The notes under the pieces were generated by a model, which saw only the letters and a list, made by a program, of their open reading frames with translations, was not told the DNA's origin and searched no databases. This document shows positions 34,046 to 44,891 of a stretch of 64,000 nt of DNA, piece after piece; position 1 is the stretch's first letter, and each line of letters opens with the position of its first letter. The translations under genes were made by a program, and so were the position numbers. The DNA lies in the NCBI RefSeq assembly GCF_003018235.1, contig NZ_CP027437.1. One strand, written 5' to 3'. The stretch comes from Escherichia coli. Lineage in GTDB: Bacteria; Pseudomonadota; Gammaproteobacteria; Enterobacterales; Enterobacteriaceae.

Positions 34046-36550
34046 ATGTCACAAACTATCGACCTGACCCTGGACGGCCTGTCCTGCGGTCACTGCGTTA
34101 AACGCGTGAAAGAAAGTCTCGAACAGCGCCCGGATGTTGAGCAGGCGGATGTGTCTGTCACTGAAGCGCACGTTACCGGGACTGCCAGTGCAGAACAGCT
34201 GATCGAAACCATCAAACAAGCGGGTTATGACGCATCTGTAAGCCACCCAAAGGCTAAACCGCTGGCGGAGTCATCAATCCCGTCGGAAGCACTGACAGCG
34301 GTTTCTGAGGCGCTTCCGGCAGCGACCGCCGATGACGATGACAGCCAGCAGTTGCTGCTGAGCGGCATGAGCTGCGCCAGCTGTGTCACCCGCGTACAAA
34401 ATGCGCTGCAAAGCGTACCGGGCGTCACTCAGGCACGGGTAAACCTGGCGGAGCGTACTGCGCTGGTGATGGGCAGTGCCTCCCCACAAGATTTAGTGCA
34501 GGCGGTGGAAAAAGCGGGCTACGGCGCGGAAGCGATTGAAGATGACGCTAAACGCCGCGAGCGCCAGCAAGAAACCGCCGTCGCTACGATGAAGCGCTTC
34601 CGCTGGCAGGCAATTGTCGCACTGGCGGTGGGTATCCCGGTGATGGTCTGGGGGATGATCGGCGATAACATGATGGTCACCGCTGACAACCGCAGCTTGT
34701 GGTTGGTTATCGGCCTGATAACCCTGGCGGTAATGGTTTTCGCCGGCGGGCATTTTTACCGCAGCGCATGGAAAAGCCTGCTGAACGGCGCGGCGACAAT
34801 GGATACGCTGGTGGCGCTGGGTACGGGCGTGGCGTGGCTCTATTCAATGAGCGTCAACCTGTGGCCACAGTGGTTCCCGATGGAAGCGCGACATCTTTAT
34901 TACGAAGCCAGCGCGATGATTATCGGTCTGATCAATCTCGGCCATATGCTGGAAGCGCGCGCGCGTCAGCGTTCTTCTAAGGCGCTGGAGAAATTACTCG
35001 ATTTAACCCCACCGACGGCGCGCCTGGTCACCGACGAAGGTGAAAAAAACGTGCCGCTGGCAGATGTTCAGCCAGGTATGTTACTGCGCCTGACGACCGG
35101 CGACCGTGTGCCGGTAGATGGTGAGATTACCCAGGGCGAAGCGTGGCTGGATGAAGCGATGCTGACGGGCGAACCTATCCCGCAGCAAAAAGGCGAAGGC
35201 GATAGCGTCCATGCCGGGACAGTGGTACAGGACGGCAGTGTGCTGTTTCGTGCCAGTGCGGTCGGCAGCCATACTACGCTGTCACGGATCATTCGCATGG
35301 TGCGACAGGCCCAGAGCAGCAAGCCAGAAATCGGTCAACTGGCGGATAAAATCTCCGCCGTGTTTGTGCCGGTAGTAGTGGTTATTGCGCTTGTCAGTGC
35401 GGCAATCTGGTATTTCTTTGGTCCGGCACCGCAGATTGTCTATACCCTGGTGATTGCCACCACGGTGCTGATTATTGCCTGTCCGTGTGCGCTGGGGCTG
35501 GCGACGCCGATGTCGATTATTTCCGGCGTCGGTCGTGCGGCAGAATTTGGCGTGCTGGTACGGGACGCCGACGCGCTGCAACGCGCCAGTACGCTCGACA
35601 CTGTAGTGTTCGATAAAACCGGGACGCTGACCGAAGGTAAACCACAGGTTGTCGCGGTAAAAACATTTGCTGATGTTGATGAAGCACAGGTATTGCGTCT
35701 GGCGGCGGCGCTGGAGCAAGGTTCCAGCCATCCTCTGGCACGGGCGATCCTCGATAAAGCAGGCGATATGCAGCTGCCGCAGGTCAATGGCTTCCGCACA
35801 TTGCGCGGGCTGGGCGTGAGCGGCGAAGCTGAAGGTCATGCGTTGTTGTTGGGTAATCAGGCGCTGTTAAATGACCAGCAAGTTGATACTAAAGCGATTG
35901 AGGCAGATATTTCAGCTCAGGCATCGCAAGGGGCAACGCCTGTGCTGCTGGCGGTTGACGGGAAAGCGGTAGCCCTGCTGGCTGTACGCGATCCATTGCG
36001 TAGTGATAGCGTGGCGGCGCTGCAACGCCTGCATAAAGCGGGATATCGTCTGGTGATGCTAACCGGGGATAACCCAACCACCGCCAATGCGATCGCCAAA
36101 GAAGCAGGGATTGATAAGGTGATAGCCGGGGTGCTGCCGGACGGTAAAGCCGAAGCGATCAAACGTCTGCAAAGTGAAGGACGTCAGGTGGCAATGGTGG
36201 GCGATGGCATTAACGACGCGCCAGCGCTGGCTCAGGCGGATGTCGGCATTGCAATGGGTGGCGGCAGTGATGTTGCCATTGAAACCGCGGCGATTACCCT
36301 GATGCGCCATAGCCTGATGGGTGTTGCGGATGCGCTCGCGATTTCCCGCGCAACGCTGCGCAATATGAAGCAGAACCTGCTCGGCGCGTTTATCTACAAC
36401 AGTATCGGTATTCCGGTCGCCGCCGGTATTTTGTGGCCGTTCACCGGTACGCTGCTTAACCCGGTGGTCGCCGGAGCGGCAATGGCGCTCTCGTCGATTA
36501 CCGTAGTGAGTAACGCCAACCGGTTACTGCGGTTTAAACCGAAAGAGTGA
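34046..36550 (+). CDS. copA: Cu(I)-translocating P1B-type ATPase CopA (834 aa)
   Basis: Two N-terminal GxxCxxC metal-binding domains (GLSCGHC, GMSCASC), CPC motif, DKTGT phosphorylation site, GDGINDAP. Confidence 0.97.
34246..34257 (+). other. Programmed -1 ribosomal frameshift site within copA (slippery C CCA AAG, then GGC TAA in the -1 frame), giving the 70-aa CopA(Z) chaperone
   Basis: Heptamer cccaaag at codons 68-69; a -1 slip reads GGC then TAA, ending a 70-aa product that is the first metal-binding domain; copA is reported in the literature to use this mechanism. Confidence 0.7.
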
Positions 36551-36977
36551 TTGGTATTTACTTAATGCGTTTGTGAGATCCAGTTCTTGTTGCGCTCCTT
36601 TTATGAGTCATGCCATATAAAGTGACTGGCGCAGGGAGCGCGCAGGGGGCGGCCAATCGCCGCCGCCCCTGCACCCCCGGGCTCTGGCGAACAAAATCGC
36701 CGCTGCGCGGTACCCTCAGCTTATCCCTTGCGGCTACCGGGTCGGGCGCGAGGTAACATCCCTGTAAAACGCGCCCTCAGCCCACATCCATGTGGGCTGC
36801 CCCGGCCTTCAGGGAACGCCTCGGCGATTTTGACGCCACCAACACCGGTGCAGTCTTTCGTTTCAAAGCAAAAACAATTTTTCGATCATATTTAAGCTAC
36901 CACTGAACAAGCCTCATAACTCCATTTGCGCCATCCCTCCCCGCGCGCTAGCATGATATTTCACAAAGGGAGGTCGT

Positions 36978-37772
36978 ATGGATCTGTTGTACCGGGTAAA
37001 AACGCTTTGGGCCGCGCTGCGCGGTAATCATTACACCTGGCCTGCTATCGATATCTCTCTTCCCGGCAATCGCCATTTTCATCTGATTGGCAGTATTCAT
37101 ATGGGCAGCCACGATATGGCTCCCCTGCCCACCCGTTTGCTCAAAAAGCTCAAAAACGCCGATGCGCTGATCGTCGAGGCGGATGTTTCCACCAGCGATA
37201 CGCCTTTTGCTAATTTGCCTGCCTGCGAGGCGCTGGAAGAGCGCATTAGCGAGGAGCAACTCCAAAATCTGCAGCACATTAGCCAGGAGATGGGCATTTC
37301 TCCGTCGCTCTTTTCTACCCAACCGCTGTGGCAAATCGCGATGGTTCTTCAGGCGACGCAGGCACAAAAACTGGGGCTGCGGGCAGAATACGGTATCGAT
37401 TACCAGCTATTGCAGGCGGCGAAGCAACAACATAAACCCGTGATTGAACTGGAAGGGGCAGAAAACCAGATTGCCATGTTGCTCCAGCTCCCTGACAACG
37501 GACTAGCGCTGCTGGACGATACGCTGACCCACTGGCACACCAATGCACGGTTGCTGCAACAAATGATGAGCTGGTGGCTGAATGCGCCGCCGCAAAATAA
37601 TGAAATAACGCTGCCTAATACGTTCAGTCAATCGCTGTACGATGTGCTGATGCATCAGCGAAATCTCGCCTGGCGGGACAAATTATGCGCCATGCCGCCG
37701 GGGCGCTATGTGGTCGCAGTCGGTGCACTACACCTGTATGGAGAAGGGAATTTGCCGCAGATGTTGCGCTAA
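36978..37772 (+). CDS. ybaP: TraB/GumN-family protein YbaP (264 aa)
   Basis: 264-aa ORF in the conserved position next to chiX and ybaK. Confidence 0.85.
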   Translation: MDLLYRVKTLWAALRGNHYTWPAIDISLPGNRHFHLIGSIHMGSHDMAPLPTRLLKKLKNADALIVEADVSTSDTPFANLPACEALEERISEEQLQNLQHISQEMGISPSLFSTQPLWQIAMVLQATQAQKLGLRAEYGIDYQLLQAAKQQHKPVIELEGAENQIAMLLQLPDNGLALLDDTLTHWHTNARLLQQMMSWWLNAPPQNNEITLPNTFSQSLYDVLMHQRNLAWRDKLCAMPPGRYVVAVGALHLYGEGNLPQMLR

Positions 37773-37854
37773 AAAAATGGCCAATATCGCTATTGGCCCG
37801 TCAAAGAGGAATTTCATATTTTTATTATTATGCCGTCACTTTAAGCGACGGTGT
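37771..37854 (-). ncRNA. chiX: ChiX (MicM/SroB/RybC) Hfq-dependent small RNA
   Basis: Minus-strand sequence ACACCGTCGCTTAAAGTGACGGCATAATAATAAAAATATGAAATTCCTCTTTGACGGGCCAATAGCGATATTGGCCATTTTTTT matches recalled ChiX, including the terminator hairpin and U-tail; located in the ybaP-ybaK spacer as in K-12. Confidence 0.85.

Positions 37855-43526: not shown

Positions 43527-44891
<1,365 letters not shown>

Follow-up and report, generated by a model that had tools for sequence, protein, structure and literature searches.

A conserved slippery heptamer and a predicted RNA pseudoknot mark the known CopA(Z) frameshift site in copA of an Escherichia coli chromosome

We identify a site at the start of the copA gene of an Escherichia coli chromosome as, with a probability of about 95%, the known copA/CopA(Z) programmed −1 ribosomal frameshift site, operating by the following mechanism. 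Ribosomes translating copA would arrive at the slippery heptamer C_CCA_AAG with tRNA-Pro in the P site and tRNA-Lys in the A site, where an H-type mRNA pseudoknot 6 nt downstream (stem 1, 34259–34264 with 34296–34301 plus a short extension; stem 2, 34282–34290 with 34312–34320) would oppose unwinding. A fraction of the ribosomes would then slip back by one base (CCA to CCC, AAG to AAA), read GGC as Gly70 and terminate at the TAA at 34255–34257, releasing a soluble, 70-amino-acid copper chaperone made of a single HMA domain, and the ribosomes that do not slip would go on to make the 834-amino-acid Cu(I) efflux ATPase. All positions are those of the window, by which we mean the whole 64,000-nucleotide stretch of DNA that was analysed. 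The frameshift has been in the literature since 2017 and is unremarkable for E. coli, and there is nothing new about the window's own copA site.

The open reading frame at 34046–36550 on the plus strand (834 codons and 834 amino acids, with an ATG at 34046) is copA, encoding a Cu(I)-exporting P1B-type ATPase with N-terminal HMA domains. Its protein carries the Pfam domains E1-E2_ATPase and Hydrolase (HAD) and two copies of HMA, together with the motifs CGHC14 (residues 14–17), CASC110, TGE374, CPC479, DKTGT523 and GDGIND719, and RefSeq names the gene copA in 5,422 genomes, with the product name 'copper-exporting P-type ATPase CopA'. The copA region is matched at 95% or more in 5,422 of 5,426 complete genomes, which places the window on the E. 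coli chromosome. Upstream of the gene, on the opposite strand, lie glsA and ybaT, with the copA promoter between glsA and copA, and ybaP follows downstream. As a separate observation, the window also holds an accessory island for type I secretion that includes a giant adhesin, siiEA; the siiEA gene and its TolC-like partner both appear to be frame-disrupted.

A Shine–Dalgarno sequence (AAGGAG, 34034–34039, plus strand) stands 6 nt 5′ of the copA ATG. The promoter, at 33975–34005 on the same strand, is of the CueR-operator type: a −35 element TTGACC (33975–33980) and a −10 element TAACCT (34000–34005) are separated by a 19-bp spacer, and an inverted-repeat search found a perfect 7-bp dyad, ACCTTCC/GGAAGGT, at 33978–33984 and 33992–33998. 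A sigma-70 scan that allowed spacers of 16–18 bp found no copA promoter, an expected outcome with a MerR-type spacer of 19 bp. We take this layout to be the known MerR/CueR architecture, with CueR as the presumed regulator of a predicted site. The assignment of CueR to copA is traced to Outten et al. (2000) in a passage of PMC6747150.

The slippery heptamer C_CCA_AAG occupies 34246–34252 (plus strand) in the X_XXY_YYZ register and comprises the last base of codon 67 (C34246), codon 68 (CCA, 34247–34249) and codon 69 (AAG, 34250–34252). Read in the −1 frame from 34246, the sequence is CCC AAA GGC TAA, which gives P, K and G and then a stop whose last base is 34257. The change from CCA to CCC and from AAG to AAA leaves the first two positions of each codon paired, so that re-pairing of both tRNAs in tandem is possible. 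The −1 stop (34255–34257, plus strand) falls within the 6-nt spacer GCUAAA (34253–34258, plus strand) that separates the heptamer from stem 1. The frameshifted coding sequence is thus join(34046..34252, 34252..34257) on the plus strand, with G34252 read twice after the slip, and encodes 70 amino acids plus a stop. The predicted product, MSQ...SHPKG, ends in glycine and corresponds to the first HMA domain of CopA (residues 8–62, with CGHC at 14–17; Pfam HMA, E = 8e-14). A preliminary description of this DNA had named the gene copA, placed the heptamer at codons 68–69 with GGC TAA following in the −1 frame, and proposed a 70-amino-acid product consisting of the first metal-binding domain. The domains and the CPC479, DKTGT523 and GDGIND719 motifs bear out the gene name, its coordinates and codon numbers are exact, and the product has the length and domain that it proposed.

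Taken alone, the copA heptamer does not exceed chance: shuffles predict 7.85 copies of CCCAAAG in the window, and 4 are present. Across the 17,977 codons of the long open reading frames there are 18 in-frame X_XXY_YYZ heptamers. Only 2 of these 18, those of copA and dnaX, are followed by a −1 stop at three codons' distance, and a passage of PMC10861913 names the same two as the chromosomal E. coli genes that use −1 frameshifting. The heptamer itself is no rarer than chance; the significance of the copA site comes from its conservation.

To describe that conservation across species, we used CopA residues 1–160 as the query with one genome per species, which gave 77 loci, drawn from the best 80 of at least 530 relatives. 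Among the matches listed, all 72 Enterobacterales species keep an in-frame C_CCA_AAR, with TAA or TGA as a −1-frame stop at a distance of exactly three codons, over a range that covers Escherichia, Erwinia, Pantoea, Serratia, Yersinia, Dickeya, Edwardsiella and Xenorhabdus; neither the heptamer nor the −1 stop was found in any of the five non-Enterobacterales relatives among the same matches. CCA is preceded by C in every case, though the residue at codon 67 may be H, S, R, P, F, C, V or A, and Pro68 is encoded by CCA in all 70 species of a codon alignment. Likewise, codon 70 ends in T throughout, though the residue may be A, S, T, P, F, N or C, and this invariant T opens the −1 stop. The heptamer and the stop are conserved at the nucleotide rather than the protein level; the P-K residues at the slip site are conserved at the protein level too. 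A search for literature on conservation of the copA frameshift in Enterobacteriaceae gave no match.

Synonymous sites give the same region prominence over the rest of the gene. In the codon alignment (70 species, codons 3–530), we measured the share of sequences with the same amino acid that use the same codon; over 525 sliding windows of 7 codons, this synonymous codon identity has a mean of 0.506, a standard deviation of 0.098 and a maximum of 0.88. The 15 highest-scoring of the 525 windows all lie in copA codons 66–91. The peaks fall at codons 67–73, which hold the heptamer, the stop and the 5′ arm of stem 1; at codons 79–85, which hold the 5′ arm of stem 2 and the 3′ arm of stem 1; and at codons 90–92, which hold the 3′ arm of stem 2 and where the codons CUU CCG GCA reach 0.92, 0.92 and 0.78 against a gene mean of 0.51. 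Judged by codon usage, the copA signal is conserved beyond the needs of the protein itself.

The preliminary description had pointed to 34258–34330 as the place to look for a stimulatory structure, and a conserved pseudoknot, spanning 34259–34320, was indeed found there. Two crossing perfect inverted repeats are visible in the window: AAACCGCUG/CAGCGGUUU (34256–34264 with 34296–34304) and CGGAAGC/GCUUCCG (34284–34290 with 34312–34318). Stem 1 has its 5′ arm at 34259–34268 (plus strand), made up of the core CCGCUG (34259–34264), a G·A mismatch and an extension of 2–3 bp (34266–34268), and its 3′ arm at 34292–34301 (plus strand), made up of the extension (34292–34294) and the core CAGCGG (34296–34301). 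The 5′ arm of stem 2, GUCGGAAGC (34282–34290, plus strand), is located within the stem 1 loop and pairs with the 3′ arm, GCUUCCGGC (34312–34320, plus strand). With the helices assigned from our own alignment, stems 1 and 2 would form an H-type pseudoknot that starts 6 nt 3′ of the heptamer, a distance within the roughly 5–9 nt of the canonical bacterial −1 frameshifting cassette.

Pairing was evaluated in an alignment of 73 sequences, 71 of them distinct. The stem 1 core CCGCUG/CAGCGG is paired in 100% of the 71 distinct sequences and includes compensatory changes from C-G to U-A in five Pantoea, from C-G to A-U in Erwinia persicina and from U-A to C-G in Pantoea sp. 1.19. In the inner extension, past the one-base mismatch, 34266:34294 is an invariant C-G pair and 34267:34293 is mostly A-U or G-U. 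The stem 2 core, with pairs in 95.7% of cells across species, is for the most part either invariant or varies between G-C and G-U, so that covariation lends weaker support to stem 2 than to stem 1. For the pseudoknot as a whole, standard pairs fill 82.5% of cells, compared with 17–44% when the partners are slid by 1–3 columns, and none of 500 shuffles matched the observed pairing on any of five measures. In E. coli, the 9-bp repeat adds pairs between AAA (34256–34258) and UUU (34302–34304); this longer helix was considered as the conserved stem 1 and rejected, as those three columns pair in only 20–63% of sequences. Because the three outer A-U pairs are not conserved, the conserved helix is the 6-bp core with its inner extension.

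Folding programs recover parts of this arrangement. RNAalifold, which is blind to pseudoknots, independently gave stem 1 as the consensus helix, and the minimum-free-energy fold of the single sequence chose stem 2, along with an outer GGCGG/CCGCC pairing; the stem energies are −9 to −14 kcal/mol for stem 1 and −14 kcal/mol for stem 2. The nested minimum free energy of 34253–34330 is no better than that of shuffles (z = −0.8), a measure in which nested folding cannot represent a pseudoknot. The case for the pseudoknot for this reason rests on covariation and conservation and not on thermodynamics. An Rfam scan of 33800–34600 at E ≤ 10 returned no relevant match, only chance snoRNA-like ones. 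The copA element is absent from Rfam 15, an absence that does not mean that the RNA is unstructured.

Comparison with K-12 MG1655 shows how closely the window follows the strain in which the frameshift was described. From nucleotide 113 to nucleotide 651, copA is identical to that of K-12, a stretch that starts 133 nt before the heptamer, continues for 399 nt beyond it and covers the heptamer and the whole pseudoknot; the earlier statement that the site is intact therefore holds, the heptamer and the 150 nt downstream of it being identical to K-12. Over the full gene, 11 amino acids and 100 of 2,505 nucleotides differ. Outside the identical stretch copA has diverged by about 5%, with 10 further amino acid changes, all downstream of the slip site, and CopA(Z) itself has a single difference, I38V (V38 in the window, I38 in K-12). 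In the 5′ untranslated region, the run of A just 5′ of the Shine–Dalgarno sequence is one A longer than in K-12. Within the species, the 80 nt that contain the site and the structure (34243–34322) are at least 99% identical, and so effectively identical, in 5,348 of 5,422 E. coli genomes.

The window and the K-12 copA/CopA(Z) frameshift (Meydan et al. 2017, Mol Cell 65:207; Drees et al. 2017, Mol Microbiol 106:635) share the gene, the heptamer and the −1 stop. They also share a product length of 70 amino acids and a context of glsA–ybaT upstream and ybaP downstream, and they differ in V38, the extra A of the 5′ untranslated region and the diverged remainder of copA. Efficient frameshifting in E. 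coli copA is described in a passage of PMC9548414, which gives Meydan et al. (2017) as the discovery, with support from ribosome profiling, and Drees et al. (2017) as independent confirmation; this source and PMC5009743 present the frameshift product as made in K-12. According to PMC6182138, the copA pseudoknot and its S1 and S2 variants stimulate −1 frameshifting in single-molecule assays, and a review gives a frameshift frequency of 0.5 and a contribution of the product to copper tolerance (PMC9375231). The nascent CopA peptide also stimulates the frameshift, as stated in a section of PMC7558416 that cites Meydan 2017, and residue 38, I in K-12 and V here, falls inside the nascent chain reported as contributing to this stimulation. 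We infer that the allele in the window would behave like that of K-12, its RNA signals being identical and one residue of the nascent chain different.

Three other explanations, namely an incidental heptamer, a structure that serves to form a transcript and slippage during transcription, are each weakly supported. The heptamer and the −1 stop could be by-products of encoding His-Pro-Lys-Ala-Lys in the linker between domains, with no role in recoding, and such a reading would sit well with the lack of over-representation of CCCAAAG in the window, with the frequency of in-frame X_XXY_YYZ heptamers, about one per 1,000 codons, and with the retention of the P-K residues at the protein level. What it leaves unaccounted for is the nucleotide pattern: the C ahead of CCA is constant while its residue varies among H, S, R, P, F, C, V and A, Pro68 is CCA in 70 of 70 species, the T of codon 70 is held across 7 residues in a way that keeps the −1 stop, and synonymous-site conservation peaks exactly at the site. 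The synonymous-site data in effect refute the by-product explanation, which we regard as excluded and to which we give hardly any credence; frameshifting has, moreover, been published for the identical K-12 sequence (PMC9548414, in the passage cited above).

Somewhat less improbable, though still very unlikely, is that the downstream RNA structure serves mainly in mRNA processing or stability or in forming a short copA transcript, the short protein coming chiefly from truncated mRNA. The wording of the title of Drees et al. favours this idea, and the conservation data show that the structure matters and not what it is for. A truncated mRNA without a stop would, however, leave the conserved −1 stop and the register of the heptamer unexplained, and a terminator scan of the plus strand from 34258 to 34800 found no terminator-like site. 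The 6-nt spacing between heptamer and stem 1 is also what stimulators of −1 frameshifting need, and the copA pseudoknot stimulates −1 frameshifting in vitro, as reported in the part of PMC6182138 already cited. A short transcript and frameshifting are, in any case, not mutually exclusive mechanisms. The remaining alternative moves the −1 shift from the ribosome to RNA polymerase, and we consider its chance negligible: it has the short C3 and A3 runs in its favour and nothing more, and a heptamer in the X_XXY_YYZ register, followed by a spacer and a pseudoknot, is the hallmark of tandem tRNA slippage. Transcriptional slippage requires homopolymer runs much longer than three bases, and the three-base runs at copA are far shorter than that.

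A close parallel is the tau/gamma −1 frameshift of dnaX (Rfam RF00382), like copA a chromosomal gene unrelated to mobile elements. Both have an X_XXY_YYZ heptamer that ends in AAG, a stop in the −1 frame at a distance of three codons with one extra residue in that frame, a short product that is the N-terminal module of the long one, and an RNA structure 6 nt downstream. They differ in that dnaX combines the heptamer A_AAA_AAG with a simple stem-loop, whereas copA combines C_CCA_AAG with a pseudoknot, and in that dnaX has an Rfam family and copA is without one. The dnaX site also uses an upstream Shine–Dalgarno-like element, which we take to be established, whereas none is visible upstream in copA. 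The dnaX slip site A_AAA_AAG lies in the same window, at 52850–52856 on the minus strand, with the Rfam DnaX element scoring 96.8 bits.

At the protein level, CopA(Z) resembles the stand-alone chaperones of the CopZ/Atx1 type, such as the CopZ proteins of Enterococcus hirae and Bacillus subtilis, in having a single HMA domain, a length of about 70 amino acids and a CxxC motif; those chaperones are functional partners of a CopA ATPase, as described in a section of PMC7558416. They have a gene of their own, whereas CopA(Z) is the first domain of the pump, freed by recoding. The number of domains ahead of the slip site varies among relatives: according to Pfam it is two HMA domains in Serratia, Pectobacterium, Edwardsiella and Yersinia; Budvicia aquatica has three HMA domains, and two CxxC motifs precede the site in Dickeya, Hafnia, Xenorhabdus and Budvicia diplopodorum, on a count of CxxC motifs alone. 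Because the cassette sits after extra N-terminal HMA domains in some genera, tandem frameshift chaperones of two or three domains are predicted there. We suggest tentatively, with rather less than even confidence, that heptamer, stop and pseudoknot may form an order-wide Enterobacterales module placed always just before the last metal-binding domain, which would yield tandem chaperones wherever extra HMA domains are present. No description of a tandem-domain copA frameshift product was found in the literature searched.

The frameshift product is poorly represented in sequence records. In the curated K-12 record NC_000913.3 it appears as a two-piece CDS, YP_009518752.1, 'soluble Cu(+) chaperone', with the same 212-nt span as CopA(Z) in the window, and UniProt labels the K-12 product 'Isoform Soluble copper chaperone CopA(Z)'. 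Among 31 different PGAP-annotated RefSeq records inspected, none lists CopA(Z) and only copA is given at the site, which agrees with the earlier remark that annotation pipelines miss it. In a collection of 15 billion proteins, the exact 70-amino-acid K-12 CopA(Z) occurs in 2 contigs only, and the V38 variant of the window is absent. Automatic pipelines thus omit a second real protein, the copper chaperone CopA(Z), with the curated K-12 record as the sole exception, and the practical value of this analysis lies in the CopA(Z) coding sequence given above as an addition to the annotation. The alignment of the copA cassette also holds enough covariation to seed an Rfam family. For the organism, copA is one of very few cellular −1 frameshifts outside mobile elements, and through it a single copA mRNA sets the ratio of pump to chaperone.

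The divergence of copA (34046–36550) from that of the reference strain K-12 MG1655 is mosaic. The first 651 nt contain three differences, none of them within nt 113–651, and the remaining 1,854 nt contain 97 (5.2%). Such a distribution points to recombination, with its breakpoint near position 34697, rather than to selection acting only on the frameshift cassette (heptamer, −1 stop and downstream pseudoknot). Immediately upstream of the copA Shine–Dalgarno sequence, the A-run at 34032–34035 is one A longer than in K-12 (TTAAAAGGAG here, TTAAAGGAG in K-12). Downstream (36551–36977), the window lacks the ybaQ gene that separates copA from ybaP in K-12, leaving a copA–ybaP gap of 427 nt versus 794 nt in K-12; strain 7/2 has the same arrangement as the window.

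The tau/gamma −1 frameshift site of dnaX (52208–54139, minus strand) is also intact, with GCA AAA AAG AGT GAA in the zero frame and AAA AAA GAG TGA in the −1 frame. Its slippery heptamer (52850–52856, minus strand) lies within the gene, and the Rfam DnaX frameshifting element (RF00382) matches at 52811–52875 (minus strand) with 96.8 bits. Given that this site is present in addition to that of copA, both −1-frameshifting chromosomal genes of E. coli fall within the window.

For the copA frameshift pseudoknot, a search of 33800–34600 against Rfam release 15 returned no relevant family at E ≤ 10. Alignment A2, comprising 73 sequences of the site and its downstream structure, shows conservation and covariation sufficient for it to serve as the seed of an Rfam family. 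Two other RNAs scored above the Rfam gathering score, both on the minus strand: sroB (the ChiX sRNA; 37771–37854), which adjoins ybaP/ybaK as it does in K-12, and naRNA4 (CssrE; 44811–44888).

An accessory secretion island occupies 4745–31218 (minus strand), between cueR (4341–4748) and ybaT. It encodes an HlyD adaptor (4745–5920, minus strand), a type I secretion ABC permease/ATPase (5917–8079, minus strand), siiEA (a giant adhesin related to BapA) and an outer membrane protein of the TolC family. The last two genes both look frame-disrupted from their sequences. siiEA is divided, in a break region at 28728–28781, into a 341-aa N-terminal ORF carrying BapA_N (28728–29753, minus strand) and a 6,892-aa ORF (8083–28761, minus strand), and its span is 13 nt short of the intact 21,684-nt gene in NZ_CP151009. 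Two minus-strand ORFs (30295–31218 and 29862–30452), overlapping at 30295–30452, make up the split TolC-family gene, whose span exceeds the intact 1,356-nt gene by 1 nt; the gene is likewise annotated as frameshifted in strain 7/2. Only 827 of 5,426 E. coli genomes have the full-length island. The highest identity of the island to any of these genomes is 95.2%; for the copA region it is 99.9%.

In two other species, copA has a stop in the zero frame. Erwinia persicina CFBP8797 (locus L035, 1710–1760) has a TAA eight codons past the slip site (…TES*SQPEALT), so the full-length pump would not come from that frame as assembled, and in Mixta sp. (L049) codon 333 is a stop. Possible explanations are pseudogenization, assembly error or gene splitting.

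Other loci encode additional HMA domains ahead of the slip site (L047, L052–L055, L059, L061–L064, L066, L067, L070, L071 and L073; slip sites at approximately 1690–1915 of each locus). In Serratia, Pectobacterium, Edwardsiella and Yersinia, Pfam places two such domains before a retained slip site and pseudoknot; in Dickeya, Hafnia, Xenorhabdus and Budvicia diplopodorum, two are indicated by CxxC count only; and Budvicia aquatica (L062) has three ahead of its slip site and pseudoknot. The last metal-binding domain always follows the slip site, including at these loci. The frameshift products in multi-HMA genera are thus predicted to be tandem-HMA proteins of around 140 or 205 aa.
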